DNA of 64,000 nt from positions 19,431 to 83,430 of IMG/VR virus record IMGVR_UViG_2920292642_000002; one strand, given 5' to 3'. The notes under the pieces are model-generated. The model did not search any database and was not told the DNA's origin. It saw nothing but the letters and a program-made list of their open reading frames with translations. The DNA is from a virus (Duplodnaviria > Heunggongvirae > Uroviricota > Caudoviricetes). The stretch's first letter is position 1, and the number at the start of each line of letters is the position of its first letter. Positions 30,992 through 63,871 of the stretch are shown here, piece after piece. The position numbers and the translations under genes are program-made.

Positions 30992-30995
30992 GAAC

Positions 30996-40699: not shown

Positions 40700-40705
40700 G
40701 TGCAG

Positions 40706-40972: not shown

Positions 40973-40973
40973 G

Positions 40974-41433: not shown

Positions 41434-41442
41434 TGGGTTGAC

Positions 41443-41673: not shown

Positions 41674-41679
41674 GTGCAG

Positions 41680-41958: not shown

Positions 41959-41967
41959 TCGCCGGCC

Positions 41968-44593: not shown

Positions 44594-45136
44594 AAAATGC
44601 GTGCGGTGCACATGACTCTGACCCTCAAGCGGCCACGGCCGACCTTTGCGCAAGTCTTCGCGACGACCGCACATCCCGACGTTCTCCATTGGATTTCCAA
44701 AAGCGAAGCGCGCATCGGCCCGGACGCCTATAAGGAGTTCGTCGGCTCGCTCCCCTCCGAGCACACGCAGTTCCTGCACCTGCTCGAAGTGTCACTGCGA
44801 CAGGGTCAGGGCAATCTCGACGGCTTTCGCGTCGCCTCCGATCTCAAATCCTATCTCGATTGGCCGGTCGATTCCGAACTGGTCAAGATCATCGACGACG
44901 CCGTGGACATGACCCAGCGCAAGAACCTGCGGCTGGCGACGATCGCATGGGTGATGGAGACTGGCACCCGCTTCCACGCCAAACCCTCCGAGGAAGTCCA
45001 ATATCGCGGCGAGACCTTTTCCGGCACACGCTCCGGCCGCGTCGTCGAGGTCGACAGGGTGATCGCCTCTGGCACCGTCGCCGATGCCAATGACCAGCGC
45101 TGGACCGTACTCGGCGAAAATCTGGTGGCGGCATGA
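44594..45136 (+). CDS. hypothetical protein (180 aa)
   Basis: ORF 44552..45136 from ATG 44594 preceded by GTCCAGAAT...TTGACA promoter-like region. Confidence 0.45.
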   Translation, partial: KMRAVHMTLTLKRPRPTFAQVFATTAHPDVLHWISKSEARIGPDAYKEFVGSLPSEHTQFLHLLEVSLRQGQGNLDGFRVASDLKSYLDWPVDSELVKIIDDAVDMTQRKNLRLATIAWVMETGTRFHAKPSEEVQYRGETFSGTRSGRVVEVDRVIASGTVADANDQRWTVLGENLVAA

Positions 45137-45699
45137 AGTGGTCGGACAAAACCATCCGGCCGGGACCTGTCTGCGGCATCGATCCGGGCGTCGACGGCGC
45201 ACTCGCCTTTCTCGATGTGACCGACTGGACGATCGAGATCGTCGACGTTCCGAAGATAAAGGTCATCGTCAACGGTAAGCCGCGTCATCACGTCGACCAT
45301 GTCCGCCTCGCCGAGATCATCACGGCGCGCCGGCCGTGGATGATCGTCACCGAGCATCTGTGGTCGCGGCCCGGTCAGGACGCCAAGGGCCTGTTCTCGC
45401 TCGGCCGCTACACCGGACAGGTCGAAATGGCCTCCTCCATGCTCGGCTGTGACCTCCGGCAGGTGACGCCGCAGGAGTGGAAGTCCGACCTCGCCGTCTC
45501 CTCCGACAAGAACCTCAGCCGCGAACGCGCCGCGCAACTGATGCCGTGCCTCGCGCCGACCCTCACCCGCAAGGGCGACCACGATCGCGGCGAGGCCGCG
45601 CTGCTCGCCTTCTGGGGCGCGCTCAAGCTCGGCCGCATGCCCAAGCCGATCCGCCTCATCAACCCACCCGCCCCTCCCAAGAGAAAGAAAGCAGCATGA
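45133..45699 (+). CDS. RuvC-like Holliday-junction resolvase (RNase H fold)
   Basis: N-terminal GIDPGVDGALAFLD motif and acidic residues. Confidence 0.5.
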   Translation: MKWSDKTIRPGPVCGIDPGVDGALAFLDVTDWTIEIVDVPKIKVIVNGKPRHHVDHVRLAEIITARRPWMIVTEHLWSRPGQDAKGLFSLGRYTGQVEMASSMLGCDLRQVTPQEWKSDLAVSSDKNLSRERAAQLMPCLAPTLTRKGDHDRGEAALLAFWGALKLGRMPKPIRLINPPAPPKRKKAA

Positions 45700-46091
45700 A
45701 GAAAATGAACTGGGACGACGAGATGCGTACCCACGTCCCGTCGATGTTCATCACCGAGGATGACGACGACGAGGTCGAGTTGGTCGACACCGGCCGCGTC
45801 GACAAGGACGGCGTCCCGATCATCATCGCGCTCTCTCACAAGCAGGGCTTCGCCGGCTTCCTGCCGCCCGGAATGTACGAGCGTATCCAGCAGGCGAAGG
45901 AGGAGGCCGAGGCCAAGGCTGAGCTTACCGAGATGATCGAGGAGATCGTCACCGTCACGCTGAAGAAGATCGGCATCAAGCTCCCGCCGCCCGCGCCGGG
46001 GCCGGCTCCGGCTGTGATCCCGCGCATCAAGGAGAAGACTGTCAAGGTCTCGAACAAGAAGAAGGGATCGGCCGATGCCCGTCCTGAGTAA
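45696..46091 (+). CDS. hypothetical protein (131 aa)
   Basis: tail of ORF 45477..46091 from ATG 45696. Confidence 0.4.
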   Translation: MKKMNWDDEMRTHVPSMFITEDDDDEVELVDTGRVDKDGVPIIIALSHKQGFAGFLPPGMYERIQQAKEEAEAKAELTEMIEEIVTVTLKKIGIKLPPPAPGPAPAVIPRIKEKTVKVSNKKKGSADARPE

Positions 46092-46566
46092 CCCGAAATG
46101 GGAGGTCTTCGCCACCGGTCTGGCGGACGGCCTCACCGTTCTCGATGCCTATGAGCAGGCCGGCTACCCGCGCTCGGCCTCCTCGGCGTCGCAGTTGAAG
46201 AACCGGCCTGAGCTTCAGTCGCGCGTGCAGGAACTGATCTACGAGAAGCAGAGCGCCGCCCGGCGTGAGTCCGAGAATGATCCCGACATCAACCCGCACG
46301 AACTCAACCGTGCATGGTTGATCACCACGCTGATGAAGAATGTCGAGATCGCCCAGAAGGCGCAGCAGATCGCACCGGCCAACAAGGCGGTCGAGATGCT
46401 GGCCGAGATCATCGGCTACTCGCTCAAGAACCGTGGCGGCAAGAACGCCAACGACGACGACCCCAACAAGGACGGCGAAGCGCCCGGCTTTGATTTCGAC
46501 AAGGCCAATGACGCCATCGGCCGGCTCATGGAAGTGCTGCCGGACGCACCGACCGAGGGTAGCTGA
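46075..46566 (+). CDS. terS: terminase small subunit
   Basis: N-terminal HTH-like region PKWEVFATGLADGLTVLDAYEQAGYP typical of phage small terminase family; immediately upstream of terL. Confidence 0.6.
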   Translation: MPVLSNPKWEVFATGLADGLTVLDAYEQAGYPRSASSASQLKNRPELQSRVQELIYEKQSAARRESENDPDINPHELNRAWLITTLMKNVEIAQKAQQIAPANKAVEMLAEIIGYSLKNRGGKNANDDDPNKDGEAPGFDFDKANDAIGRLMEVLPDAPTEGS

Positions 46567-49379
46567 TGGCCCGTCCCTACCCTTACGCGGATCGGGACCG
46601 GGTCTACGCGTTTCTCAAACAGGCCGAAGAGTTCGCCACTCTGGTCGAGAAGATCGCCGAAGGTCAGGCCGATCACAGTCCCGAGCTTCAGGGCGCGCTC
46701 GCCGCGCTCACCGGAGCCACCGACCTGCATCAGCAGCACAAGGCCGTCCAATACATGCTGGATCGTGCCCGCAAGGAGCACGAGCGCCGGCTGATCGAGG
46801 CCGCGCCGAACGACTTCACCGCCTATGTCGAAGTGATCAATCCGGAGGAGCCGTGCGCCTCGAAGCTGCACCGCTTCCTCGGCGAGACGCTGATGGAGAT
46901 GGAGGCCAATTCCGGCCTCAAGAAGGGCGTCTCGATGCCACCCGGCCACGCCAAGGACATGTGCGTGTCCACGCCTGTGATGTTGGCGGACGGCTCGATG
47001 AAGCCGCTCGGCGAGGTCCAGGTTGGCGACTTCGTCATCACCCACACCGGCAGCGCCCGCGAGGTTCTGGAGGTCCACGATCAGGGCAAGCGCCCGGTCA
47101 TGCGTATGCGCACCCTCTGCGGCCGTGAGCTTTTTCCACATCCCGAGCATCCGTTCCTGACGCCGGCCGGCTGGGTGCAGGCGCAATATCTGAAGCAGGG
47201 TGACGTACTGGCGCAGCAGCGCGAGTTCTCGATTCCCAACGGCTCCGGCCGGTCCCTCTACGATTTCATTCTGGCCGGCTACATGATGGCGGCTGGCATG
47301 GTGCGCGGCCGGCATTACAGCCGCGTCTTCACCGTCGACCGCACCTTCCGCACCGACGATCCCGAGATCATGGCCGATCTCATCGACACGGCCAAGCGAC
47401 TAGGATTCCGCGCGCGGATCGCCAAGAAGGGTAGCTACGGCAAGGAGATCGAGACCGCCCGGTTCGATGAGAAGTTCATCCACTGGCTGCGTGGCCAGCG
47501 CCTGAACGGCCTGCACCGCCATACCATGCGGGTCCCCGACTGGGTGTTCAAGGGTGGGCTGATCGAGATCGCCGCCTTTGTCGGCGCGATCTTCTCGATG
47601 GACGCCAGTCTGGTGCCGACCTCCCACAAGCAGAGCCTGAACGCCCGCAAGATGGTGATCCGGCTGCGCAACGCCGGATTGGTTGGTGACATGCAGCGGC
47701 TGCTCGCCCGCCTCGGCGCGCGCTCGGCACTCGATAAGCATCTGGTCAACAACTACAACTACGAGCCGACCGAGTTCTGGAGCCTGACGGTCTGGGACGC
47801 CGAGGATCAGTATTATCTCCAGCGCTCGATGCGCGTGCGTGGCGTCAACCAGCGCCTGTGGGCCGACCCGATCGTGCCGCGCGCCTTCTTCGACGGACGC
47901 TATGCCACCGACCGCATCATCGCGATCGACTATGACTGGGACGTGCGGGAGACCAAGTGCCTGACCGTCGACGAGGACCATTCCTTCCTCGCTGATGGCG
48001 TGGTGGTGCACAACTCCACCTATTGCTCGCGCCTGTTTCCGTCGTGGTGGATGGGCAAGCGCGAGAACAAGCGCTGGCTTCAGGCCGGCCACACCCAGCG
48101 TTTTGCCGAGAAGGAGTTTGGCAAGAAGACCCGCGACAACATCCTCGCCACGGCAGCCTATCAGAAGGTGTTTCCGGGCGTCGGGGTCAGCACCGCCTCG
48201 CAGGACGAGATCATCCTGACCAATGGCTGCGCCTACAACGTCAAGGGCGTCGGACAGGGCATCTCGGGTTACCGCTCGCACTTCAACAACGTCGACGACC
48301 CATACGCGACCCATGAGGACGCGATGAGCCCGACCATCCGCGAGAAGGTCTGGAACTGGTGGGCGAACGACTTCAGGACCCGTCGCCTGCCGGGCGCGGG
48401 CGAACTGATCATCGTGACGCGCTGGCACACCGACGACGTGGTCGGCCGTCTGGAGGAGATGATCAAGAAAGGCGAAATAGAACCATGGGAGTTTATTAAT
48501 CTACCCGCGTTTGCGGTAGAAGAAAACGATGTATTAAATCGCAAAATTGGTGACGTTTTGTGGCCGGAAGTATTCAAAAAAGAATTTCTTCTGGACATAA
48601 AAGGCACCAGTACGGAAGAAAACTGGTCCGCCCTGTACCAGTGTGCGCCAGTGTTGGAAAAGGGCAACATCCTCCAGCGTAACTGGATTAAATACTATAA
48701 ACAACTGCCGCAGCGTAGTATTCGCCCGGCTGGTACTGTGCAGGCCGTGAACCGGGCTCCCGTGGCCGATCCGCGCCTCGTACGGGTGGACCCTTTGAAA
48801 TTCAAAATCGGGGCCGAGGGACCCTCGGAATCGAAACCGGGGCCGGCCGATTCTGGAAATCAAAATTCGGTTTTTGCAATTCGAACCGTGGTTTCCGTCG
48901 ACACCGCCGAAACGGATTCGGCAAGGGCCGACCGCTCGGCGCTTCAGGTCTGGATTTATGGATCGGACCGCAACCACTATCTGGCGCATGCCTCGGTCGG
49001 CAAGTATCTGTTCCCCGACCTCGTCGAGGCGATCGAGACGACGGCGCTGGCATGGGGAGCCGATCTCGTGCTGATCGAGACCAAGGGCGCGGGTCTGCAA
49101 TACATTCAGGCGCGCACCGGCCACTCGCAGACGCCGATCATCGGTTTCAACCCGAAGAACATCGAGAAGTCGATGCGCTTTGACGGCACCATGGTGATGT
49201 GGCAGACCGGCACCGTGCTGCTGCCGGAGAAAGGGACATGGCTGGCCGACTATGTCGACGAGCTTCTGAAGTTCCCGTCTGGGCGTTACGACGACCAAGT
49301 CGACGCGACCAGCCAGTATTTGCACTGGCACCGGATCGACGGCGGCTGGGATCGCGGCATGAAGAAGATCAAGGGCTGA
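46566..49379 (+). CDS. terL: terminase large subunit interrupted by a 351-aa LAGLIDADG intein
   Basis: N-extein ...MPPGHAKDM | CVSTPVMLADG...VVVHN | STYCS...; C-terminal nuclease/ATPase region typical of TerL. Confidence 0.8.
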   Translation: MARPYPYADRDRVYAFLKQAEEFATLVEKIAEGQADHSPELQGALAALTGATDLHQQHKAVQYMLDRARKEHERRLIEAAPNDFTAYVEVINPEEPCASKLHRFLGETLMEMEANSGLKKGVSMPPGHAKDMCVSTPVMLADGSMKPLGEVQVGDFVITHTGSAREVLEVHDQGKRPVMRMRTLCGRELFPHPEHPFLTPAGWVQAQYLKQGDVLAQQREFSIPNGSGRSLYDFILAGYMMAAGMVRGRHYSRVFTVDRTFRTDDPEIMADLIDTAKRLGFRARIAKKGSYGKEIETARFDEKFIHWLRGQRLNGLHRHTMRVPDWVFKGGLIEIAAFVGAIFSMDASLVPTSHKQSLNARKMVIRLRNAGLVGDMQRLLARLGARSALDKHLVNNYNYEPTEFWSLTVWDAEDQYYLQRSMRVRGVNQRLWADPIVPRAFFDGRYATDRIIAIDYDWDVRETKCLTVDEDHSFLADGVVVHNSTYCSRLFPSWWMGKRENKRWLQAGHTQRFAEKEFGKKTRDNILATAAYQKVFPGVGVSTASQDEIILTNGCAYNVKGVGQGISGYRSHFNNVDDPYATHEDAMSPTIREKVWNWWANDFRTRRLPGAGELIIVTRWHTDDVVGRLEEMIKKGEIEPWEFINLPAFAVEENDVLNRKIGDVLWPEVFKKEFLLDIKGTSTEENWSALYQCAPVLEKGNILQRNWIKYYKQLPQRSIRPAGTVQAVNRAPVADPRLVRVDPLKFKIGAEGPSESKPGPADSGNQNSVFAIRTVVSVDTAETDSARADRSALQVWIYGSDRNHYLAHASVGKYLFPDLVEAIETTALAWGADLVLIETKGAGLQYIQARTGHSQTPIIGFNPKNIEKSMRFDGTMVMWQTGTVLLPEKGTWLADYVDELLKFPSGRYDDQVDATSQYLHWHRIDGGWDRGMKKIKG
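46962..48014 (+). other. intein with double LAGLIDADG homing-endonuclease domain inside terL
   Basis: block A CVSTPVMLADG, block B HPEHPFLT, LAGLIDADG-like LYDFILAGYMMAAGMV and LIEIAAFVGAIFSMDASL, block G VVVHN + Ser. Confidence 0.75.
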
Positions 49380-49688
49380 GCGGCGTTAACCTTACCTGCA
49401 CAAGGTTAACGCCCGCGCCCGGCTCTGCACTCAACCCAGTTTCCCTAATGATTTCAAGGCTTTACGCCGGACTCCTACCAACTCCTAGAATGTACGAATT
49501 AGGAGTTGGGGAAAATTTGGATGATCATGGCCTCCAGATTTTGGATGAGCATGGTTTTGCATGAGGTCTGGCATGAGCATGGTCGAATTTTTGGATGGGG
49601 GAGAATTGGAACACGCGCCTGCGCGAGCGCGCGCCCGGATCGCTCAGATTTTCGGAAAACTTGAGTAAAATTTGAAACAAGCCCGCCG

Positions 49689-49845
49689 TTAACCATGCTC
49701 AGGTAAGGTTAACGCGCCTTGTTAACCATTCTCAGGTAAGGTTAACGGCCGGCGTTAACCATGCGGGAGTAAGGTTAACGCCGACCGCCTCCACCCAGCC
49801 CGCCTCGTTAACCCTACCCGAGTAAGGTTAACAACGCCAGCCCCG
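49689..49845. promoter_or_regulatory. cluster of four tandem GTTAACC-N10-GGTTAAC palindromes plus a half-site (operator-like array)
   Basis: perfect 7-bp inverted repeats with 10-bp spacer repeated at 49692, 49727, 49762, 49812; same element precedes every downstream cassette. Confidence 0.55.
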
Positions 49846-49927
49846 GCGTTAACCTTGCTGGCGATCGCCACTTGCATTTCGTGCGCAATGCATTATTCTG
49901 TATCAGTCAACGCAACAGGAAAGAAAA

Positions 49928-50149
49928 ATGAGCAAGGAACCTCCCTTCCTCGACTGGGACGCGATCGAGACCGAGATCGCCGACACCAATCGCAAGGCGT
50001 GGGACGCCGAAAACACCCCGGAGAAGATCGCGGCGCGCAAGGCCAAGTCTGAAGCCGAGTTCGAGCGCGGAGTCCGTAACGGCTGGTGGGACAAGGACGG
50101 CAATTCCCTCCAGCCCGAGGAGCCGGACGAGGAGGAGGACGAGGAATAA
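49928..50149 (+). CDS. cassette small protein (73 aa, acidic C-terminus)
   Basis: preceded by TTGCAT...TATTCTGTATCAGTCAACGCAACAGGAAAG leader. Confidence 0.5.
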   Translation: MSKEPPFLDWDAIETEIADTNRKAWDAENTPEKIAARKAKSEAEFERGVRNGWWDKDGNSLQPEEPDEEEDEE

Positions 50150-50286
50150 GACGCCGGCCGTTAACCATTCCGGGGTAAGGTTAACGCGTGCCGGCCGCGC
50201 CCGGCGTTAACCTTGCTGTCCAGATTCGCTTTACAAATCCGGAGGCGTCGCCTAAGGTGCTCTGGTCAACGCAACCGGAGGACCCC

Positions 50287-50613
50287 ATGAGCAAGCGATC
50301 CGACAAGGCAGCGGCCAAGCTGTTCCACCAACTGTTTCCCGGCGTCGGCTGGGATTACACCGACCACAAGGCCAAGCCGCTGCTGCGCGCCGCGTTCGCC
50401 CTTTACGAATCGGAGTGGAAGACCACCCAGCCTCAGGCGTTCAGGATTGAGCGCTGGGAGTGGCCGGCTAAGGCGTTCAAGAGCGACGATCCATATGTTT
50501 TCGACGCGCATGAGCCGTGGACGGTGCTTTTCCGCGAGGTCAAGATGCTGCACGACGCTCACCGCGAGACAAGCGGATACCCGCGCACGCTGGCGGACCG
50601 GATGCCCCGGTGA
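50287..50613 (+). CDS. cassette small protein (108 aa)
   Basis: promoter TTTACA-N17-TAAGGT and leader GTCAACGCAACCGGAGG upstream. Confidence 0.5.
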   Translation: MSKRSDKAAAKLFHQLFPGVGWDYTDHKAKPLLRAAFALYESEWKTTQPQAFRIERWEWPAKAFKSDDPYVFDAHEPWTVLFREVKMLHDAHRETSGYPRTLADRMPR

Positions 50614-50726
50614 TGACCTACGAAATCACCACGGCGCTTACCTTCCTGCTGATCCTCAAAGTGCCGCTGCTGCTCTGGATCGTCCAGTTCACGATGGACG
50701 TGGACTCCGGTCGCATCAAGCTCTGA
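50613..50726 (+). CDS. hydrophobic micro-protein (37 aa, MTYEITTALTFLLILKVPLLLWIVQF...)
   Basis: TGATG coupled to previous ORF; terminator follows. Confidence 0.4.
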   Translation: MTYEITTALTFLLILKVPLLLWIVQFTMDVDSGRIKL

Positions 50727-50907
50727 AACGTCGAGGCCGGGCCAAGCGCCCGGCCTTTTTCGTGCCGGCCGGCGTTAACCATACCCGAGTAAGGTTAACG
50801 GCGAGCGCGCCGGCTGCTCCGAGGCATTAACCTTGCTGTCCAGAATCGCTTTACAAAAGCGGAGGTATGGCCTAAGGTCCTCTGGTCAACGCAACGGAGA
50901 GACCGAC

Positions 50908-51168
50908 ATGTTCAAAATGGAGTTCAGGACCGACAACGCCGCTTTCGTCGACGATCAGGCCGGCGAGATCGACCGGATTTTCCGCGAGGTCGCCGAGCGC
51001 GTCGCGGCGGCGGAAAAGGGCGGCACGATCCGCGATAGCAACGGCAACCGAGTCGGCCGCTGGGAACTGGAGGCCGAAGACGAAGAGGAGGAAAACCCCT
51101 TCGATCCCGAGAGCCCGGAGGGTCGCGCGTGGGAGCGCGGCGACCGTCACCTTGTGGGAGGCAACTGA
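50908..51168 (+). CDS. cassette small protein (86 aa)
   Basis: leader GTCAACGCAACGGAGAG. Confidence 0.5.
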   Translation: MFKMEFRTDNAAFVDDQAGEIDRIFREVAERVAAAEKGGTIRDSNGNRVGRWELEAEDEEEENPFDPESPEGRAWERGDRHLVGGN

Positions 51169-51404
51169 TGACCAAGCGAGAGAAGCGCCGTTTCATCCGC
51201 GAACTGATCAGCGCTGTCCAGAAGTCAATTCTGGATCGTGTCCCAGACATGCCGGAGGAGTGGGACGGTCACGAACTGCGCGCCTATATCGCCGAGAAGT
51301 TCGGCGAAACCGTTGTGACGGTCGGCAGGACCGGGCACTATGGCAAGCCCTACGCCAAGCGGACCCGTGACTATCGCAACACCGTTATCGAGCGCAACCT
51401 ATGA
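51168..51404 (+). CDS. cassette small protein (78 aa)
   Basis: coupled to previous. Confidence 0.45.
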   Translation: MTKREKRRFIRELISAVQKSILDRVPDMPEEWDGHELRAYIAEKFGETVVTVGRTGHYGKPYAKRTRDYRNTVIERNL

Positions 51405-51532
51405 CCCTATTCGTGGAAGGCTACGAGGCCGCGAGACGTGGCGTCAAATGGTGGCGCAATCCCTATCCCTCAGGCTCTGAGGACGCCTACACATGGGACA
51501 AGGGACACACGAGGTTCCGCACCATCGGCTGA
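51401..51532 (+). CDS. small protein (43 aa)
   Basis: ATGA coupling; manual translation. Confidence 0.35.
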   Translation: MTLFVEGYEAARRGVKWWRNPYPSGSEDAYTWDKGHTRFRTIG

Positions 51533-51843
51533 TGCTGCACCGCACAACACGATAAATCAGGAGGTCGGGCCGCGTGCCCGGCCTCTTTTGCATTGCGGTA
51601 AGAGATTGATCTGCAAGGCTGATCTGGTCCAACTCCGAAAAGGTGGAAAAGCGGAGATGTCCGAAATCTGCGGCAAAGTTCGGACCGGCCGGGCCTTAAC
51701 CCTACCCGGTCAAGGTTAACCCGTCGACAGGCTCAGGACGCCCGGCCGCGCCACCTGCCGGCGTTAACCATGGCCGAAATCTCCGCTTGCAAATCATGCG
51801 GGATGCACTATTCTGATCCTGTCAACGCAACGGAGTTTTCGAC

Positions 51844-52077
51844 ATGGCAGTGCATTCCCTCGACACCTTCGGCCAGCCGGACGGCTCGACCCAGATCAAG
51901 GATCGGACCGGCGCACTGGTCGCCACCCTCGACTGGGACGGAGAGGCCAGCGCATGGAAGGTCACCCCGGACAACGACCCGATCGGCTTCCCGCGCCCGG
52001 CACACTTCGCCAGCCGCGTCGCGGCCGAGTTCTGGGTGCTGGCCTACGCCAACGAACTGGAGGCGACCGGGCATTGA
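51844..52077 (+). CDS. cassette small protein (77 aa)
   Basis: leader GTCAACGCAACGGAG. Confidence 0.5.
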   Translation: MAVHSLDTFGQPDGSTQIKDRTGALVATLDWDGEASAWKVTPDNDPIGFPRPAHFASRVAAEFWVLAYANELEATGH

Positions 52078-52149
52078 GCCCGGTCTTTTCCTTGCCCGGC
52101 CGGCGTTAACCCTACCCGAGTAAGGTAAACGCGGCCGGCTGCGGCGTTA

Positions 52150-52225
52150 ACCTTGCTGTCCAGATTAGCTTTACAAGAGCGGAGACCACACCTATGATGC
52201 TCTGGTCAACGCAACGGAGGACGTA
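52150..52225 (+). promoter_or_regulatory. representative cassette promoter and leader: GTTAACCTTGCTGTCCAGATT - TTTACA - N17 - TATGAT - GCTCTG - GTCAACGCAACGGAGG - ATG
   Basis: -35 TTTACA at 52170-52175, -10 TATGAT at 52193-52198, SD GGAGG 7 nt before ATG 52226. Confidence 0.55.
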
Positions 52226-52477
52226 ATGACTAAAGGCCCTATCATCCATGCACCTGTCGTGGTGCGCGAAGCATTCCGCATCGGCGATGAGATCATCGAC
52301 GCCAACCCGATCAGCGGTTTCCATTTCTCCGTCGAGACGATCGGCGGCAAGGTCTACACCGGATGCCCGGAAGAGTACGCCGACAACGGCGTTCTAATTC
52401 TCGACTGCGTTGGCGGCACGCCGACGCCGATCATCGACGTTGCCAAGATCGCCGCCATCACCGTGGTTGAGGTCTGA
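52226..52477 (+). CDS. cassette small protein (83 aa)
   Basis: ORF track. Confidence 0.5.
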   Translation: MTKGPIIHAPVVVREAFRIGDEIIDANPISGFHFSVETIGGKVYTGCPEEYADNGVLILDCVGGTPTPIIDVAKIAAITVVEV

Positions 52478-52480
52478 ACT

Positions 52481-52696
52481 ATGACGCACTATCCCCTTAC
52501 CCACGTCGACGGGAGCGCCGACAAGCGCTACTCGATCGCCAAGGAGTTTTGCGGCCACGCCGATCGCCGCTGGGTGCTCCGCTTCTGCGGCGAGTTCGTC
52601 AAGTCGTCGATCAGCTTTGCCAGCGTCGCCATCCGCGCCGCTGGTCACCGCTCGGCACTCAACGGCCAAGTGATATTTGAGGAGGTCCGGGCATGA
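52481..52696 (+). CDS. cassette small protein (71 aa)
   Basis: ORF track. Confidence 0.45.
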   Translation: MTHYPLTHVDGSADKRYSIAKEFCGHADRRWVLRFCGEFVKSSISFASVAIRAAGHRSALNGQVIFEEVRA

Positions 52697-52887
52697 AGAC
52701 CCAACTGCAACATTTTTGGGAAGCGCATCGCCGCATCGCCGATCTCAATGAAGCGATGCTCGATGCACTCTTCGGACCCAACCCGATCACCGACGCCGAG
52801 CTTCGCGCCTTGATCGAGAAGCGGCCGGAGCGTTACGGCCGCTTTGCCGGCTATCTCGGCACCCGTCAGATGGAGCAGGCCGCGTGA
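52693..52887 (+). CDS. cassette small protein (64 aa)
   Basis: ORF track. Confidence 0.45.
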   Translation: MKTQLQHFWEAHRRIADLNEAMLDALFGPNPITDAELRALIEKRPERYGRFAGYLGTRQMEQAA

Positions 52888-53023
52888 GCGGCCTTTTCCT
52901 TGCCCGGCCGGCGTTAACCTAACCGAGATAAGGTTAACGCGGCGGCGCGGCCGTTAACCTTGCTGTCCAGATTTGCTTTACAGTCTCCCCGGCTCTGCTA
53001 TGGTGTTCTGGTCAACGCAACGG

Positions 53024-53274
53024 AGAGACTCATGTACGTGATCCGCACCCACACTGTCGAACTGGCCGACAAGCGCTTCCTGTCCAGCGACACGCTGACG
53101 GAGATGACGGCGAAGGAACTGCGTACCGCCGAGGCCGAGAACCGGTCCGGCATCGAATACAACATCGTCACCGCCGAGATGGCGCGCCGCTATGTCAAGC
53201 AAGGCATGGTCCATGAAACGGGACTCTGGGTCGACATGGACGGTAAGGTCCGATACGCCAAGGCCGGGGAGTGA
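53024..53274 (+). CDS. cassette small protein (83 aa)
   Basis: internal ATG of ORF 52960..53274 after leader. Confidence 0.5.
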
Positions 53275-53417
53275 TCCCGGCCAACCCTTCACGCGCGTTA
53301 ACCATTCCAAGGTAAGGTTAACGGCCGCTCCGGCGTTAACCTTGCTGTCCAGAATCACTTGCATCTGGCGCAATCTCCGCTATTGTGAGACTGTCAACGC
53401 AACAAAGGAGATCGCTG

Positions 53418-53741
53418 ATGTACATGTTCAAGGACAAGAAGCTGGAGCAGGACCAACGCAAGGTCCAGTTCGGCGACGCCGACAAGTCCACCCTCGCCAA
53501 CATCTGCATGGTCGCGGCCGAGCGCTTTCGGGAGAACGCGGCCGAGTTCCGCAAGTGTATCGACTACAAGCCGAAGGAAGGCGAGTTCCCAATCTTCCCG
53601 ACCGGCGAGGCAGCCAAGCGGCTGGTCGAGCAGTTCGAGCGGCAGGCAGCCGAGGCGGAGAAGTTCCGCGACCTGTTCGACAACGTGGTTCAAATCCCGG
53701 ACATGGTGACGTTTGTCGAGGAAGAGGAGGAGGCCGCGTAA
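53418..53741 (+). CDS. cassette small protein (107 aa, ends EEEEEAA)
   Basis: stop codon lies in loop of terminator hairpin. Confidence 0.5.
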   Translation: MYMFKDKKLEQDQRKVQFGDADKSTLANICMVAAERFRENAAEFRKCIDYKPKEGEFPIFPTGEAAKRLVEQFERQAAEAEKFRDLFDNVVQIPDMVTFVEEEEEAA

Positions 53742-53886
53742 GCGGCCTTTTTCTTCGCCCGCCATTAACCCTAACCGGTCAAGGTAAACGCGGCCGGCCC
53801 CGGCGTTAACCTTGCTGTCCAGATTCGCTTTACAGATGCCGGCGATCTGCTATGGTGCTCCTGTCAACGCAACGCAGGAGTCCTGA

Positions 53887-54436
53887 CATGGATCATCTCG
53901 CTTTCCTCATGCCCATTTTCAATCGCCCAATGGGCGAAAGCTGGATCACCATGGTGATCGATGTCGTGCAAAAGCGCGACGCCGAGGATCACCCGATCAA
54001 CGGCGCAGATGTCGTCTCTTCCTATGAGACCGACAATCCCAAGCTGATCGGACATTCGCTGCGCGATCTGATCATCTCGGCACAGGCAAGCGTCACCGGA
54101 CAAGAGGACTGGTACGCCATTCGCGTCGAATACCGCAACGCCAATACGGTCGACGCCAAGCGCGCCCGAGCCATGGTCAAGACGCTCACCGCGATCGAGA
54201 AAGCGGCCGAGAAACTGCGCGACAAGCAGGGGCTCGACTATCTCACCGCGATCCTGCTGGCCTTCGACAAGGTATTTCCGGGCATGCAACTGGCCGAGAC
54301 TTCCGAGGGCGGCACAGTGCGCGGCTTCTACAATCGCCACAAGTGGCGGTGGACGCCGATCGGCGGCGCAGTCCGGGCAATCCGATCGAGCGCCGAGGAG
54401 GCGCTTGTCAGACACAGGAAGGAGAAGGCCGCGTAA
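53887..54436 (+). CDS. cassette protein (182 aa)
   Basis: ORF 53852..54436 from ATG 53887. Confidence 0.5.
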
Positions 54437-54584
54437 GCGGCCTTTTCCTTGCCCGGCCGGCGTTAACCCTACCCGGTCAAGGTTAACGCGGCCGACTCCG
54501 GCGTTAACCTTGCTGTCCAGATACGCTTTACAAATGCGGAGGTCGTGGTATGGTGCTCCTGTCAACGCAACAAGGAGTTCTGAC

Positions 54585-54962
54585 ATGACCCACATGGAAA
54601 ACCGCATCGCCCGCGCCGAGGCGCTGCTGGCCGAGAAAGGCGTCAACGTCTCGACCAAGGCCAGCCTCAAGATCGCGATCGATCAGGCCGGCGTCGCCCG
54701 CGTCAAGCTGGCCGATGTCAAGAATCACCTCCATCTGGTCTCCATGGCGGTCGAACGTGTGCTGGAGACGGGTCATCGCCTGACCGCGCACGAGTTCAAC
54801 GACGAACGATATTCCAAGGCGGTCACGGCCTGCGCCGCGATCGGTTTTCGCGAGGCGCTGGCCGCGCTCGATCGCGCGATCGAGTTCGCCGAACGCGATC
54901 TGGTCGCGTGGCGCGACGCGTGGAAGAACATCCGCACCATGACCAAGGAACGGGCCGCGTGA
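54585..54962 (+). CDS. cassette protein (125 aa)
   Basis: ORF 54405..54962 from ATG 54585. Confidence 0.5.
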   Translation: MTHMENRIARAEALLAEKGVNVSTKASLKIAIDQAGVARVKLADVKNHLHLVSMAVERVLETGHRLTAHEFNDERYSKAVTACAAIGFREALAALDRAIEFAERDLVAWRDAWKNIRTMTKERAA

Positions 54963-54974
54963 GCGGTCCGCCCC

Positions 54975-55037
54975 ATGGTCGCAGTCTTCCAACTGATCCT
55001 TGCACTTCTACTACTTTACATCCTCTGGCCGCTCTGA
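54975..55037 (+). CDS. hydrophobic micro-protein (20 aa, MVAVFQLILALLLLYILWPL)
   Basis: sits between main ORF and terminator; paralog at 59283. Confidence 0.4.
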   Translation: MVAVFQLILALLLLYILWPL

Positions 55038-55202
55038 CGAGCGGCCTTTGGCTTGCCCGGCCGGCGTTAACCCTACCCGGTCAAGGTTAATACTACCGCA
55101 CCGGCCGCGACCTCGACGCGTTAACCTTACTACCGATCGCCGCTTGCAATTCATGCAGGATGCACTATTCTGATCCTGTCAACGCAAACGGAGGTTTTCA
55201 AA

Positions 55203-55679
55203 ATGTCTGCATGGATGGTTTCTAACGCCCACGTCACCGCAATGATTTCTTGTGCGGTCGCACTGTTCCGGGAGTCCGACTCCTTCTCCGAGTTCCGTCT
55301 TGCTAATGGCAAGACGGCCGCGCGCCACGCTTTGGCCACTGCCGATCTGACCGAGCTTGGCAAGCTCCTGCTTCAGGAGAACGCCAAGAGCCTCGACGCC
55401 CGCTATCCCGGCGATAAGGGGTCAAGCGATGGCGACATGTACCATCAAGAGGAGATCGACTCCTATGTCTACGCCCGCGACAGTCACGCGGCCGGTCAGG
55501 ATGTCGGATTCCTTGCCAAGTTGATTAGCTGTTACGCTTATCAGTCCTGCGAACATGACGGCTGGGAGACCAGCGCGGCCAAGCAATGGTGCGACTGGGC
55601 GCAGGAGGTCGGCATCTCGGTCCTGCCGAGCTACAAGCGCGCACCATGGGGCTATGACGGACCGCCCGCGCCGCGTTGA
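55203..55679 (+). CDS. cassette protein (158 aa)
   Basis: ORF track. Confidence 0.5.
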   Translation: MSAWMVSNAHVTAMISCAVALFRESDSFSEFRLANGKTAARHALATADLTELGKLLLQENAKSLDARYPGDKGSSDGDMYHQEEIDSYVYARDSHAAGQDVGFLAKLISCYAYQSCEHDGWETSAAKQWCDWAQEVGISVLPSYKRAPWGYDGPPAPR

Positions 55680-55864
55680 CACACACGCGGGCCAAAGGAG
55701 GCCGGGCCGATCGCCCGGCCTCTTTTTCGCGCCGCGCCGGCCGTTAACCCTACCCGAGTAAGGTTAACGCCGATCGCCGGCCGCGTTAACCTTTCTGTCC
55801 AGATTTGCTTGCATCTGGCACAATCTCCGCTATTGTGGAATAGTCAACGCAAACGGAGGCTCCC

Positions 55865-56263
55865 ATGCCGCTACCTTCTCACCTGTTCATCGCCGATGAC
55901 GGCGCGCTCTACGACACCCGCGAACCAAACTGGGCGGAGCGCGCCCTTCGCCCGGTCTACAGAAAGACCGCCGTAACCATCCACGATGTCGCCGAACTGA
56001 AGGCGACCCTGCGCGTCGGTTCGCATGCATGGCCGGGTGGCTATCCCCTGTACATCGTATTGCAGGATGGATCGCCGATCACCCATGACACCGCGCGCAA
56101 GAATTTCCGCGAACTGGTCGCCGCAATGTGGGACGAGAACCTGCGCAACGACTGGCGACCGGTCGCCACGGGAATCAACTGGGAAGACCCGGACCTGTAC
56201 GACGCGCACACAAATGAGCGAATCCCCTCGGCCTATGCCGAGCCGGAGGAGGAGGCGGCGTGA
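55865..56263 (+). CDS. cassette protein (132 aa)
   Basis: ORF track. Confidence 0.5.
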   Translation: MPLPSHLFIADDGALYDTREPNWAERALRPVYRKTAVTIHDVAELKATLRVGSHAWPGGYPLYIVLQDGSPITHDTARKNFRELVAAMWDENLRNDWRPVATGINWEDPDLYDAHTNERIPSAYAEPEEEAA

Positions 56264-56331
56264 TCCTGCTGGTCCGACTCTTCGGGCTGGCACTGGCGCT
56301 GCTGTTTGCCTTCATCGTCTTCCAACTATGA
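56260..56331 (+). CDS. hydrophobic micro-protein (23 aa, GTG start, ILLVRLFGLALALLFAFIVFQL)
   Basis: GTGA overlap with previous stop; followed by terminator. Confidence 0.3.
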   Translation: MILLVRLFGLALALLFAFIVFQL

Positions 56332-56514
56332 CCGGGCGCAAGCCCGGTCCTTCCCTCCCCGGCCGGCGTTAACCCTACCCGCGTAAGGTTAACGCGCCGA
56401 GCGCCGGCCGCACCTGTCGGCGTTAACCTTACCTGCCGGCCGGTCAAGTTTCCGCTTGCAATTGTCCAGAATTACTTTACAACTCAAGGAGGTCAACGCA
56501 ACGGAGTTTCCGCG

Positions 56515-57147
56515 ATGGAACGCATAAAACTTCCCAACGGCTGGTCCGCCGAAATTCATCAGGATGAGGACTGCGAACGTCCCTATCAGGACGATGACGC
56601 GGTGCGGATCGTCGTCCTGCACGGCCGTTACATCGATCCGGCCAAGGGAAACTGCGGATCGGACCCGGATGAGGTCGCGCGCTGGGTCAAGGAAAACGCC
56701 CGCGATTGGTTCGTGACCAATCTCTATCTGTACGATCATAGCGGCGTCGCCTATCGGGCCGGCGAACGCAATCCATTCTCCTGCCCATGGGATAGCGGGC
56801 AGGTTGGCATCGTCGCGCTCAAAAAGAGCGAATGGGGACGCGGCAAGGGCGAACGCAACGCCAAGCGGCTGGAATATGCCAAGTCCGTCGCCGAGGAGTA
56901 TGGCCGCTGGGCCAATGGCGAATGCTATGGCTATGTGCTGCACGATCCCGAGGGCGAGGAAAGCGACTCCTGCTGGGGACACATCGGTTACGATTGGGTA
57001 TGCGAGGCCGCGAAGGACGCGGCCGAGGCCGGCGAGAAAGCCCGGCAACGGAGATTGAAGGAGGAGCAGGAGGAACGGAGACTGGCCCGGCAATCCAGAA
57101 CCAAAGCTTACATCCGCAACCACGTGCCGCTGGACAGGCGAGTCTAG
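56515..57147 (+). CDS. cassette protein (210 aa)
   Basis: ORF track. Confidence 0.5.
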   Translation: MERIKLPNGWSAEIHQDEDCERPYQDDDAVRIVVLHGRYIDPAKGNCGSDPDEVARWVKENARDWFVTNLYLYDHSGVAYRAGERNPFSCPWDSGQVGIVALKKSEWGRGKGERNAKRLEYAKSVAEEYGRWANGECYGYVLHDPEGEESDSCWGHIGYDWVCEAAKDAAEAGEKARQRRLKEEQEERRLARQSRTKAYIRNHVPLDRRV

Positions 57148-57390
57148 GAGGTCGACAAATCCCACACATTGATTAAAAGGCCGGACAAACTGTCCGGCCT
57201 TTTTGCTTGTCCGGCCGGTGTTAACCTTACCTGATCAAGGTTAACGGCCGTCGACGAGGCCTCCGACCTCGACCTCCGCGTTAACCTTACCGTCGACATC
57301 GGAGTTCGATTTTTGAAAAATTAGCTTGCATCCGTCCAGAAAATCTGTACGGTCAGAGTTGTCAATGCAACGCGAAATGGAGATCGCACA

Positions 57391-58476
57391 ATGACCACTC
57401 TGATCAACGCCCACAACAATTGGGCGCGCCGCGCACCCGATGAACGCTTTTCGTCGGTCGCGGACCTGCACGCCGCAGCCCTCAACTACAAGAACGCTGC
57501 GCGGCAGACCTCGAACCTGCCCGCCACCCGGCTGGAGGCGAAGGCGACCGAGGACGGCGCAGTCGTCCTCAACGGGTCGATGACCGAAACTAAGCTCACT
57601 CACTGGAGCTTTGGCCAGCTTGCCAAGATCGCCGATGCGCCGGCCGGCTATCTTCAGGACCTGCCCGCGCCGCTTGCGGCCGACTGCCTGAACAACGGCC
57701 TGCGCAAGGCGGGCGGCAAGGTCAACCTGTTCTACAAGATGGATGATCCGACCGAGCCGGCCGGCATGCGCACGCTGCGCGCGCTGACCTCGAACCGCTA
57801 TACCCGAATCTGGAATAGTGACATCACCCGCCGACTTGGCGAACTGGAGGCCGAAGGGCCATGGCAGCCCGCGCCGGCTGCGTTTGACGGCAGCCGTGGG
57901 TTGTATCTCGGCGACCGCGACATGTTCGCCTTTATGGTTGACAATGATCGCCGTATCTTCGAGACTGGTCCTGCTGGAGGCCTAAGCCGTGGATTTTTCG
58001 TAGAAAACTCCGAAGTCGGCGCGGCCTCTTTCAAGTTCACCAGCTTCCTGTATGAGTTTGTATGTGGCAACCACCGCGTGTGGGGCGCTTCCGAAGTCAA
58101 GGAGGTGCGCATCCGTCACGTGGGCGCGGCCGACGACTCCGCCTTCCGTCAACTGGAGGCCGAACTGGTCGCCTATGCCAATGCATCGGCGGCAGACGAT
58201 GAACTGAAAATCCAGCGCATGCGCCGCTATACGCTGGGCAAGGACCTCGACGCCGTCATCGATACCGTTATGGGCTTGCGAGTGCCCGGACTCGGCAAGA
58301 AGATGATCGAAGCAGGCTACGATCGCGCAGAGCAGTACATTGATTGGTACGGCGCGCCTAACACCGCTTGGGCGCTGGCCGGAGGCCTGACGCAGATCGC
58401 CCGCGACATGCCGAACGCTAACGATCGGGTGGCGCTGGAGCGGGCTTCCTCGAAGGTCATGGAAATGGCCTTCTGA
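57391..58476 (+). CDS. cassette protein (361 aa; possibly DUF932-like)
   Basis: ORF track; largest cassette gene. Confidence 0.5.
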   Translation: MTTLINAHNNWARRAPDERFSSVADLHAAALNYKNAARQTSNLPATRLEAKATEDGAVVLNGSMTETKLTHWSFGQLAKIADAPAGYLQDLPAPLAADCLNNGLRKAGGKVNLFYKMDDPTEPAGMRTLRALTSNRYTRIWNSDITRRLGELEAEGPWQPAPAAFDGSRGLYLGDRDMFAFMVDNDRRIFETGPAGGLSRGFFVENSEVGAASFKFTSFLYEFVCGNHRVWGASEVKEVRIRHVGAADDSAFRQLEAELVAYANASAADDELKIQRMRRYTLGKDLDAVIDTVMGLRVPGLGKKMIEAGYDRAEQYIDWYGAPNTAWALAGGLTQIARDMPNANDRVALERASSKVMEMAF

Positions 58477-58703
58477 TCCGACCGGGCCGGGCGAAAAGCC
58501 CGGCCCTCCCCTCCCCGAACGGCCCGGTTTCGACCGGGCCGTTTTGATTCAAACTTTAATCGTCGGCCGGCCGAAATTAACCCTACACGATTAAGGTTAA
58601 CGGAAATCGGAGCCGTCGACGACCTCCGACCGTCCATATTTTCCGCTTGCATCCGTCAAGATTTCCTGTACAAATCAGGAGGTCAACGCAACGGAGATGA
58701 GAC

Positions 58704-59213: not shown

Positions 59214-59282
59214 CGTGATTCCGTCCCGGTGACCGGCGCGACGCCGGGCCGGGATCATGCAGAGCGCGCCGCAAGGTGTTTT

Positions 59283-59345: not shown

Positions 59346-59518
59346 GGCCGGGCCGGGGAACCTCCCCGGCCTTTCTTTTGCGCCGCGCCGGCCGTTAACC
59401 CTACACCATTAAGGTAAACGCCGCGCCGGCCGCGCGTTAACCTTGCTGCGCGCAACGGCTTGCATCTGTCCAGCGAATCTGTACAAATCAGGAGGTCAAC
59501 GCAACGGAGTTTCACACA

Positions 59519-60103: not shown

Positions 60104-60348
60104 CATCTAAGCGCGGCAACGGCCGGGGATGAGCCAAGCTCTCCCCGGCCTTTTCACGCGTGCACCTGAGACCTGTTAACCATATCCGGGTAAGGTTAAC
60201 GCCGTCCTAACGGGCCGGGACCCTTCGGAATCAAACTCCGGGCCTTTCGAATCGCTGGTTAACTTTATCTCCGCTTTTGTACAGTTTCGCTTGACTTGTC
60301 GCACTCCGGCCCTATCCTCGACCCTGTCAACGCAATGGAGTTCATGAC

Positions 60349-60987: not shown

Positions 60988-61239
60988 TCAGCATGTGATG
61001 AGATCGCGGGCGCTTCATCCCTCCCCCCGGAGCCGCGCGCCTGCGAGACGCGGGGACCTCCCGCCGAGGTCCCGGCGTTTTCGTTTGCCGGCCGGCGTTA
61101 ACCATACCGAGGTAAGGTTAACGGCTACGCCTGCCCGCGTTAACCAAAGATGCCGGGGACCCTTCGGAATCAAAGATAGGGCCTTGCTATTATTGCAGAA
61201 TGCAATATTCTGATCTGGTCAACGCAACGGAGTTTTCAC

Positions 61240-61524: not shown

Positions 61525-61751
61525 GCCGAGCCCTTTCCTATCGCTGATCTCGCTGGATGGCGGGAGCGCATGCAGAACCTGATCGAGGGCGGGCCGCGCA
61601 AGCGGCCCTTTCCTTGTGCGGCCGAGGCCGTTAACCTTGACCCGGTAAGGTAAACAAATGCACCGGCCGGCGTTAACCATGTTTCCGAATGGGCCTTGCA
61701 TTTAATGCAGGATGCAATATTCTGCACTGGTCAACGCAACGGAGTTACGAA

Positions 61752-62006: not shown

Positions 62007-62226
62007 GCCCCTCGACCTTGCCTAAAATTTTACCGAAATTTTTTACCGACCGTTAACCATACTCAGGTAAGGTAAACGAAAAGTTAACGCGACCGGCGCA
62101 GGTCGAGGCCGCGCGCCGGCCGCGTTAACGCGCCGTTAACCATGTCCAGAATAGGTCGACAAAGGCGCTTGCAATTCATGCAGGATGCACTAATCTCCGT
62201 CATGTCAACGCAACGGAGATTTGGTC

Positions 62227-62388: not shown

Positions 62389-62400
62389 GGAGGCCGAGAA

Positions 62401-62565: not shown

Positions 62566-62695
62566 GCGGCCTTTTCTTTTGCCGATCGAGGCCGTTAACC
62601 CGGCGTTAACCATGTCCAGAATGGGTTTACAATCGTCCTTGCAATTCGTGCCGAATGCAATATTCTGTCCTTGTCAACGCAACGGAGTAAGCAAA

Positions 62696-63145: not shown

Positions 63146-63265
63146 GCGGCCTTTTCTTTTGTTAACTCGGCGTTAACCATGGCGAGGAGTGGTTTACAAA
63201 AGGACTTGCGGCAATTCGTGCGGCATGCAATATTCACATTGTCAACGCAACTGAGGAGTCACCAA

Positions 63266-63530: not shown

Positions 63531-63768
63531 TGCACGCGATCGGCCGTCCTGCCGTCCAGAGGCGCGCCTGCACGCGATCGGCCGTCCTGCCGTCCAGAGG
63601 CGCGCCTGCACGCGATCGGCCGTCCTGCCGTCCAGAGGCGCGCCTGCACGCGATCGGCCGTCCTGCCGTCCAGAGGCGCGCCTGCACGCGATCGGCCGTC
63701 CTGCCGTCCAGAGGCGCGCCTGCACGCGATCGGCCGTCCTGCCGTCCAGAGGCGCGCCTGCACGCGTT
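63531..63768. repeat. tandem direct repeat, about 6.3 copies of a 38-bp unit (GCACGCGATCGGCCGTCCTGCCGTCCAGAGGCGCGCCT)
   Basis: perfect head-to-tail copies; each unit carries GTCCAGAGG resembling the promoter-proximal GTCCAGAAT box. Confidence 0.8.
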
Positions 63769-63871
63769 AACCTCTTGTTAACCATGTCCAGTATTGGTTT
63801 ACAAAAGGACTTGTGCCAAATCATGCGCCATGCAATAACACTCTTGTCAACGCAACTGAGGAGTTCAAGAC

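Follow-up and report, generated by a model that had tools for sequence, protein, structure and literature searches.

The stretch of viral DNA analysed here, a window of 64,000 nucleotides (nt) from the Caudoviricetes record IMGVR_UViG_2920292642_000002 of IMG/VR (positions 19,431 to 83,430 of that record; coordinates below are those of the window), ends in an array of small genes whose intergenic regions carry a reiterated palindrome, GTTAACC-N12-GGTTAAC, which is the subject of this work. The array comprises at least 22 transcription units, all of them on the + strand and reaching the end of the window, and a 520-bp non-coding gap separates its first gene from that of the large terminase (TerL). 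The window is collinear with the genome of Mesorhizobium phage Cp1R7A-A1, in reverse orientation, from ∼71 kb down to 3.4 kb of the latter record (∼64 kb), and its TerL shares 70% amino-acid identity with TerL of that phage. Likewise, in the phiCbK-like phage RBC63 the resolvase, small terminase (TerS) and TerL genes follow each other as in the window, and an annotated direct terminal repeat of 10.2 kb starts inside the 3′ end of TerL. Collinearity, TerL identity and the synteny with RBC63 place the phage in the phiCbK/Lacusarx/Cp1R7A-A1 cluster. For Cp1R7A-A1, a large terminal repeat crowded with small unknown genes has been reported (Mascolo 2022, PMC9437464); together with the RBC63 synteny, this makes it very probable that the array is also a terminal repeat, of which the window would span one copy. 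The gene content of the array appeared strongly turned over with respect to Cp1R7A-A1, with many window genes having no homologue there, and the homologue of gene 019 (window 55203-55679) is found at a different place in the gene order and behind a different promoter type than in that phage.

As the original prediction had stated, GTTAAC is strongly over-represented: the window contains 67 copies against 4.71 ± 2.13 expected from dinucleotide-preserving shuffles, the maximum in any of the 100 shuffles being 11. Almost all copies (62 of the 67) are confined to positions 49385-63782 (14.4 kb), and in the 49 kb outside the array the hexamer occurs at about chance level (5 observed, ∼3.6 expected). 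The four adjacent perfect palindromes announced by the same prediction are indeed present, but with a spacer of 12 bp and not 10, since GTTAACC-N10-GGTTAAC has no match in the window and the N12 form yields 15 perfect copies against none expected. When TTAACC-Nk-GGTTAA was searched with k from 0 to 30, only k = 12 was found. Allowing up to two arm mismatches there are 24 genuine copies, 15 perfect and nine near-perfect. Each is 26 bp long and can be written as TTAA-N16-TTAA, with the TTAA centres 20 bp apart, about two helical turns, and the first three of the four clustered copies are called a 33-bp tandem array by Tandem Repeats Finder. The left arm reads TTAACCAT in 8 copies, TTAACCCT in 11 and TTAACCTT in 3, and the right arm, taken as its reverse complement, reads TTAACCTT; TTAACC or a one-base variant of it is present in every arm, in agreement with the half-site TTAAC(C)(A)(T) of CtrA, the master cell-cycle regulator of bacterial hosts.

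Alignment of the regions upstream of 22 leader boxes GTCAA[C/T]GCAA revealed a reiterated intergenic module of ∼130 bp, in which the upstream stop codon is followed by an intrinsic terminator, the palindrome, a GC-rich spacer variable in both sequence and length, a single GTTAACC, a sigma-70-type promoter, the box GTCAACGCAA, GGAG and ATG. Intrinsic terminators (a GC-rich hairpin plus a T-run) were independently predicted in 11 array gaps and precede eight palindromes by 15-20 nt, and a run of at least three T lies 7-20 nt before the palindrome in 15 of 22 copies. The palindromes are all situated upstream of predicted promoters. This placement suits a coordinate control of the whole array, as had been proposed, although not every promoter has its own copy: 19 of the 22 array promoters have a palindrome before them, and the last three (62673, 63241 and 63846) only a canonical TTAA-N7-TTAA box. 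Similarly, the extra half-site described as abutting the −35 region does exist at 21 of the 22 promoters, but it does not abut it, because the single GTTAACC starts 58-81 bp upstream of the leader box (58-59 bp in 13 units, 68-70 bp in six and 79-81 bp in two), which in the 13 units corresponds to ∼16-17 bp upstream of the predicted −35 hexamer. The distance from the palindrome to this third half-site is also variable (18-63 bp).

The core promoters are of several types, such as TTTACA-N16/17-TATGGT, TTGCAA-N16-TATTCT and TTGCAT-N16-TACAAA. In the last four units the arrangement is GTTAAC-N5-GTTAACC-N12-GGTTTACAAT, that is, a promoter TTAACC (−35)-N16-TACAAT (−10) with a TTAA-N7-TTAA box over its −35, followed by a second promoter. 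Four canonical TTAA-N7-TTAA boxes are thereby present in the array, starting at 62125, 62595, 63162 and 63767. The leader box itself, located at the predicted transcription start of each array unit, occurs at 22 sites (49906 ... 63846) on the + strand, 21 of them exact copies, with none on the minus strand; its variants GTCAACACA were found at non-array promoters near 36880, 37900 and, on the minus strand, 19590. It may serve as an initial transcribed sequence, an operator or a 5′-UTR element.

The conservation of the palindrome is that of its sequence rather than of its pairing. The arms do not vary (CGTTAACC / GGTTAACG); at position 8 the left arm has A, C or T, while the nucleotide with which it would pair is A in every copy. 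Conservation is poor in the inner 6-8 nt and in the flanks beyond CG...CG, and absent from the downstream flank. Compensatory changes were sought in the nine arm-variant copies (CTTAACC, ATTAACC twice, GGTAAAC five times and GGTTAAT), and in none of the nine was the change restored on the opposite arm, as a structured hairpin would demand. No T-run follows any palindrome, which bears out the earlier remark that they are not intrinsic terminators, separate terminators lying before them, and a search of the array against Rfam matched no family. Because the arm mutations are uncompensated, the spacing is invariant, the T-run is absent, true terminators lie upstream and no Rfam family matches, the palindromes are, judging from this pattern, DNA-level and sequence-specific protein-binding sites and not hairpins, in support of the operator-like character first ascribed to them.

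The same element was found in the closest relative. Cp1R7A-A1 contains six N12 palindromes, all within 5.1-14.1 kb and hence confined to its array, with one copy directly after TerL and a cluster of three (13691-13799) before the first array gene. This arrangement is syntenic with the one-plus-four arrangement of the window, and the GGTAAAC arm variant recurs in Cp1R7A-A1 upstream of gene 019. In RBC63 an inverted pair with N13 follows TerL, a 220-bp cluster of 13 GTTAAC lies early in the terminal repeat, and canonical TTAACC-N5-TTAAGAC boxes are present at promoters. A search of IMG/VR with an extended palindrome pattern returned one chance match on an unrelated contig of 41% GC, the lineage being essentially absent there. 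The sites are real and far above chance, lie between terminator and promoter, are conserved in sequence with an invariant spacing and syntenic in Cp1R7A-A1, and match the CtrA half-site.

The half-site of Caulobacter crescentus CtrA is TTAACC[A]T, i.e. TTAACCAT (PMC3692519), and full sites have been described as TTAAC-N5-GTTAAC in Rhodobacterales (PMC3692519, PMC7232146) and as TTAA-N7-TTAAC (PMC3692519, PMC7232146, PMC4287350). CtrA-binding sites and CtrA-dependent expression have been published for the terminal-repeat array of Cp1R7A-A1 (Mascolo 2022, PMC9437464). Phosphorylated CtrA (CtrA∼P) shifted a probe of the Cp1R7AA1_019 promoter and mutation of its canonical box abolished the main shift, and the lacZ fusion of this promoter was ∼2-fold lower in a ctrA-ts strain (PMC9437464). 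These electrophoretic mobility shift assays (EMSA) on the promoter homologous to that of the window gene concerned the canonical box, not the N12 pair, of which no mention was found in that paper (PMC9437464). The residual shift attributed there to 'orphan half-sites' is not relied on here, as the 123-bp probe, in our reconstruction, barely reaches the degenerate palindrome. Both systems belong to the same phage cluster and have an array of small unknown genes after TerS-TerL, intergenic sites massed in one region and canonical TTAA-N7-TTAA boxes, and the intergenic concentration of GTTAAC sites in the window is that of a CtrA-site-rich phage array; however, only canonical TTAA-N7-TTAA sites were scored in the paper, whereas the window is dominated by N12 pairs (24 versus four canonical boxes). 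The massing of CtrA sites in the terminal-repeat arrays of phiCbK- and Cp1R7A-A1-type phages is already published and partly validated experimentally. What we did not find described are the strict 12-bp inverted pair, its presence in Cp1R7A-A1 and its identity with a site that many Rhodobacterales and some further Alphaproteobacteria have upstream of ctrA.

This last identity emerged from a motif-first scan of bacterial genomes with the pattern GTTAACCNTN8AAGGTTAAC, which returned at least 117 loci. In 48 of 117 among the loci listed, the palindrome lies 30-68 bp upstream of the ctrA start codon, the distance being 30-43 bp in 47 of the 48 and 68 bp in the remaining one; three representative ctrA products scored 420-431 bits on the NCBIfam CtrA equivalog (cut-off 350). 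Oriented towards ctrA, the host site reads [G]GTAAC-N5-GTTAACC-N12-GGTTAAC, that is, a near-canonical box of 11-bp phasing that shares one half-site with the palindrome, the layout seen in the last four promoters of the phage. The Rhodobacterales ctrA promoters and the phage thus have in common the 26-bp GTTAACC-N12-GGTTAAC and the extra half-site 5 bp upstream, but the bacteria carry a single site per chromosome with no reiterated array, and its orientation to transcription is flipped with respect to the phage copies. In Ruegeria sp. KLH11, a half-site for CtrA has been noted 62 bp before the ctrA gene, together with a modest positive autoregulation (PMC3692519); that study does not describe a pair as such. 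Among the loci listed, the palindrome was also found 34 bp upstream of flbT-flaF in one locus and upstream of mraZ in two Shinella loci, so that in this N12-limited search it is located at ctrA, flbT-flaF and mraZ promoters, all of the CtrA regulon. At least 19 Parvibaculum-type loci (among them L056 5311-5336 and L099 2287-2312) present a context unlike that of the ctrA-upstream sites, with the palindrome 64-76 bp 3′ of a divK-like/pleD pair, between convergent genes; the pleD context was checked in two loci (PleD equivalog, 671 bits).

Taken together, these data make it likely, as far as sequences can tell, that the palindromes are, in this Cp1R7A-A1-like phage of an alphaproteobacterium, paired inverted CtrA half-sites that couple the early phage genes to the state of the host cell. 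Host CtrA is favoured as the binder over a phage helix-turn-helix (HTH) protein because the arms are its half-site, canonical boxes are present in the array, the palindrome precedes bacterial ctrA, CtrA binding has been published for the relative, and no DNA-binding domain above threshold is recognisable in 60 window proteins. In the proposed mechanism, phosphorylated host CtrA would occupy both arms as well as the half-site nearest the promoter. These three half-sites would lie, in the commonest unit, at about −96, −76 and −55 from the predicted start, roughly two helical turns apart, and at four promoters CtrA would instead sit on the canonical TTAA-N7-TTAA box over a −35. Transcription of each small early gene would thereby be tied to the CtrA state of the cell, that is, to its cell-cycle and motility stage, and such a CtrA-dependent expression would fit the model of 'lytic deferment' for this group of phages. 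At the inner edge of the repeat, the four-plus-one cluster would form a region of high-density CtrA binding, which may serve to regulate the first promoter, to titrate CtrA or for a function at the repeat boundary. A TerS packaging site or an injection-stop signal is disfavoured as a general explanation of this cluster, as the element recurs at 18 internal intergenic gaps.

If CtrA binds the pairs, the published CtrA input to phage early genes has been under-counted, because position-weight-matrix scans detect only canonical boxes, and the window has four of these against 24 palindromes and 21 single half-sites. The palindrome before bacterial ctrA would then define a CtrA-site architecture testable with simple oligonucleotides. 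The module of terminator, operator, promoter and leader is also a compact, natural and portable regulatory cassette amid the rapid gene turnover of the terminal repeat.

Several observations weigh against the assignment to CtrA. The half-sites of a canonical CtrA dimer are 11 bp apart, an arrangement that the palindrome does not have, and a 20-bp inverted pair corresponds to no described CtrA architecture. Most units lack a CtrA site over the −35, the usual activating position. According to Zhou et al. (2015, PMC4287350), a Caulobacter CtrA half-site has an activating effect if it covers the −35 and a repressing one if it covers the −10; full sites activate when close to the −35, and promoters often have more than one CtrA site. 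The phage arms resemble these motifs in their TTAA-based half-sites, but they lie upstream of the core promoter (∼−76 and −96) and not over the −35 or −10, and the inverted 20-bp pair is not among the classes described. Conservation also exceeds the CtrA core (CGTTAACC-n-T ... AAGGTTAACG), which could reflect another protein or the common descent of duplicated modules. The genome scan, by design, allowed N12 only. Moreover, in a motif-blind control in which ctrA loci were drawn from metagenomes by protein similarity (34 orthologues, together with 40 other OmpR-family regulators), the exact N12 pair was found in none of the 34 ctrA loci, which rules out that it is universal at ctrA promoters. 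An inverted pair with N21 occurred in three of the 34, and Rhodobacterales-type loci had GGTAAC-N5-GTTAACC with a degenerate right arm. TTAAC was present within 200 bp upstream in 31 of the 34 ctrA loci versus eight of the 40 other regulators. Because the exact pair is absent but the half-site nearly always present in this sample, the host N12 site is a lineage-specific addition to a general half-site theme, found mostly in Rhodobacterales. Finally, the window proteins are mostly ORFans and the relative encodes XRE and Ros/MucR regulators, so a phage protein or another host protein is a possible binder. SciP was ruled out for this role, its motif being GCGNC-N5-GNCGC (PMC4287350).

The strongest competing explanation, which we hold to be rather unlikely, is a phage-encoded repressor or activator, dimeric or tetrameric, that would use the palindromes as its operator and switch the whole array on or off, possibly in competition with CtrA. 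A dimeric regulator on three half-sites had in fact been anticipated, and the sites are indeed operator-like; however, the half-sites of the palindrome are 20 bp apart, a spacing atypical of a simple HTH dimer (∼10 bp), and the third stands at a variable 18-63 bp. A dedicated phage protein would agree with the strictly invariant N12 spacing, with the conservation wider than the 5-bp CtrA core and with the N13 pair of RBC63, as though the spacing co-varied with the phage. Cp1R7A-A1 encodes a Ros/MucR protein (gene 042, 21527-21976, minus strand; PF05443, E = 5e-50) and an XRE HTH protein (gene 198), and most window proteins are of no known function. MucR co-targets CtrA promoters in Caulobacter (PMC4287350), and phiCbK has an early XRE regulator, TgrL (PMC10688885). 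In the window, searches were carried out against Pfam with 60 proteins, against PHROGs with 10 and against NCBIfam with the methyltransferase, and none of the 60 proteins showed a Pfam DNA-binding domain above threshold. The sole DNA-binding candidate seen is a 155-amino-acid protein (23349-23816, minus strand) with sub-threshold winged-helix matches (TBPIP/Hop2, 19.8 bits; Penicillinase_R, 19.4 bits). No MucR homologue was detected at the syntenic position (window 40700-41960), where four unrelated small open reading frames (ORFs) are found although both neighbours of gene 042 are conserved, and the region homologous to gene 198 falls outside the window. Against a phage regulator speak also the arms, which are CtrA half-sites accompanied by canonical boxes of the same hexamer in the array, and the occurrence of the palindrome in many bacterial chromosomes (at ctrA, pleD, flbT and mraZ), where a phage protein is unavailable. 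If a phage protein binds nonetheless, it would be an unannotated regulator aimed at the CtrA half-site of the host.

We regard as quite unlikely a further possibility, in which the inverted TTAACC-N12-GGTTAA would be a distinct and hitherto unrecognised CtrA architecture, bound cooperatively by two dimers or a tetramer and used at bacterial ctrA, that the phage has multiplied as a CtrA-titrating decoy. About 70 half-sites per terminal repeat, in two repeats and in many replicating genomes, would titrate CtrA, and copies of the ctrA autoregulatory site of the host would perturb its cell cycle during infection.

We give little credence to the idea that the palindromes serve mainly in gene shuffling as recombination substrates at the cassette boundaries, either site-specific (attC-like) or through reiterated homology. 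A reiterated module does bound every cassette, and the gene content of the array is very unlike that of Cp1R7A-A1, with the gene 019 homologue displaced behind another promoter type. The phage, although considered virulent, encodes in the window (8147-8803, + strand) a tyrosine recombinase of 218 amino acids that is reduced to the catalytic domain (Pfam Phage_integrase, E = 2.9e-24) and has Cp1R7AA1_140 as a homologue. Sites of the attC type are imperfect palindromes of 57-141 bp with RYYYAAC ... GTTRRRY cores and extrahelical bases, and accompany promoterless cassettes next to an intI gene. The phage sites have 26 bp, GTTAACC and GGTTAAC each deviate from GTTRRRY / RYYYAAC by one base, the cassettes are all equipped with promoters of their own, and the recombinase is 41 kb distant and too small for an integron integrase. 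Shuffling would also leave unexplained the four-plus-one cluster before the first gene and the identical sites at bacterial ctrA, and homologous exchange could be a by-product of any reiterated regulatory module; under control by CtrA, reiteration of the module would probably promote cassette shuffling in the same incidental manner.

A comparable module, PeSL, was reportedly described by Arbiol et al. in 2010 in T4-type phages, in which a promoter plus stem-loop flanks small novel ORFs and the stem-loop is regarded as a terminator or RNA element. It resembles the present one as a promoter-plus-palindrome module reiterated in a plastic region, where reiteration can drive gene shuffling, but phage group, promoter consensus and host differ, and here a separate true terminator is present and the palindrome behaves as a protein-binding site. 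The host-takeover module of SPO1 and the pre-early region of T5 are likewise long direct terminal repeats packed with small early genes that have their own strong promoters and terminators; to our knowledge, they have no TTAAC-type sites and no wiring to a cell-cycle regulator of the host.

That the palindromes act as nucleic-acid hairpins, be it as back-up terminators, as 3′-end stabilisers or processing sites in read-through transcripts, or as DNA cruciforms, appears highly improbable. They come after gene 3′ ends, and RNA folding yields 7-bp stems (z-scores −1.8 to −4.4), to which GC pairs of the flanks often add. However, with intrinsic terminators located upstream, most palindromes should escape transcription, and no T-run of their own follows them. 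The invariant arm sequence with its nine unpaired variants, the unconserved inner stem, the lack of an Rfam match and the identical sites upstream of bacterial genes all speak for a site recognised on DNA.

The probability that the GTTAAC excess reflects a restriction-modification or epigenetic system is practically negligible: GTTAAC is the HpaI site, and the N6-adenine methyltransferase proposed to act on it (3826-4455) is a DNA methyltransferase homologue according to PHROGs (phrog_799, E = 7e-43), but it has no Pfam or NCBIfam match and no assignable specificity, and the idea of HpaI-type methylation fails because the hexamer, neither avoided nor enriched outside the array, owes its excess entirely to the fixed-geometry regulatory repeats of the intergenic modules.

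Table 1. Terminase-region genes, palindromes and promoter elements of the array
Feature	Position	Strand	Remarks
RuvC-like resolvase	45133-45699		
Small and large terminase genes	46075..49379	+	directly upstream of the array
Small terminase	46075-46566		
Large terminase	46566-49379		
Palindrome, symmetric/flipped (GTTAACCTT...AAGGTTAAC)	49385..49410		6 bp after the TerL stop codon
Four perfect palindromes, cluster	49688-49713, 49721-49746, 49754-49779, 49807-49832		within the 520-bp non-coding gap; first array gene downstream
Promoter-proximal half-site GTTAACC, first array promoter	49848..49854	+	58 bp upstream of leader box 49906
First of 22 leader boxes GTCAA[C/T]GCAA	49906..49915	+	at the predicted transcription start; then GGAG, ATG
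Palindrome, perfect	50160..50185		
Palindrome, perfect	50774..50799		terminator T-run 13 nt before
Palindrome, 1 mismatch (CTTAACC), uncompensated	51695..51720		
Palindrome, right arm GGTAAAC (recurrent variant), uncompensated	52105..52130		terminator 52065-52085 before
Palindrome, perfect	52913..52938		terminator 52877-52894 before
Palindrome, perfect	53297..53322		
Palindrome, 2 mismatches (ATTAACC / GGTAAAC)	53764..53789		
Palindrome, perfect	54462..54487		
Palindrome, 1 mismatch (GGTTAAT)	55066..55091		terminator 55027-55046 before; Cp1R7AA1_019 homologue downstream
Palindrome, perfect	55743..55768		terminator 55704-55721 before
Palindrome, perfect	56368..56393		
Palindrome, perfect	57220..57245		
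Palindrome, 1 mismatch (ATTAACC)	58576..58601		
Palindrome, right arm GGTAAAC	59394..59419		terminator 59350-59372 before
Palindrome, perfect	60175..60200		
Palindrome, perfect	61097..61122		terminator 61062-61077 before
Palindrome, right arm GGTAAAC	61630..61655		terminator 61591-61608 before
Palindrome, right arm GGTAAAC	62052..62077		
Canonical CtrA-type box GTTAAC-N5-GTTAACC, 'type C' promoter	62124..62141	+	
Canonical box GTTAAC-N5-GTTAACC	62594..62633	+	proximal TTAACC is the −35 of the predicted promoter TTAACC-N16-TACAAT; layout GTTAAC-N5-GTTAACC-N12-GGTTTAC, geometry as in host ctrA promoters
Canonical box GTTAAC-N5-GTTAACC	63161..63178	+	
Canonical box GTTAAC-N5-GTTAACC	63766..63783	+	

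Other features of the non-coding DNA were noticed around these elements. Between the TerL-proximal palindrome and the four-copy cluster, the non-coding stretch 49411-49687 contains three TTTGGATGAGCATGG-like repeats spaced by 24-28 bp, whose core TGAGCATGGTT matches, in reverse complement, the palindrome at 49688 in its inner left part, as well as a 10-bp inverted repeat (49478-49487 / 49500-49509). These elements could represent palindromes in decay, or else a site with some connection to the boundary of the repeat. The octamer TGTCCAGA is present in 24 copies on both strands and throughout the window (∼2 expected from its length), for example at 7834, 33539, 36810, 37834 and 44539 on the + strand and at 19666 and 31509 on the minus strand. 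In most cases a hexamer resembling a −35 or a −10 comes 5 nt after it, which gives it the appearance of a promoter element specific to the phage; since TTAACC often lies upstream of it, single TTAACC half-sites are general in the promoters of this phage. Just before the last promoter, a perfect tandem repeat (63530-63766) consists of 6.2 copies, 100% identical, of a 38-bp unit (CTGCACGCGATCGGCCGTCCTGCCGTCCAGAGGCGCGC), each unit holding CGTCCAGA, a variant of the TGTCCAGA promoter box.

Among the genes, the only one of the array above the Pfam threshold encodes a DUF932 protein of 361 amino acids (57391-58476, + strand), 76% identical to Cp1R7AA1_027. Outside the array, a cluster of ∼21 tRNA genes (25200-31431 on the minus strand and 23043-23114 on the + strand) matches the tRNA cluster of Cp1R7A-A1. 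It includes a full-length GOLLD RNA (28100-28566, minus strand; RF02032, 205 bits versus a gathering score of 150, model positions 1-416) with a tRNA (28431-28503) nested in it, the host of the phage being presumably of Rhizobiales type. A permuted, two-piece transfer-messenger RNA gene of the alphaproteobacterial type was also identified at 12958-13269 on the minus strand (RF04321, 101.6 bits; RF01849, 89.1 bits).

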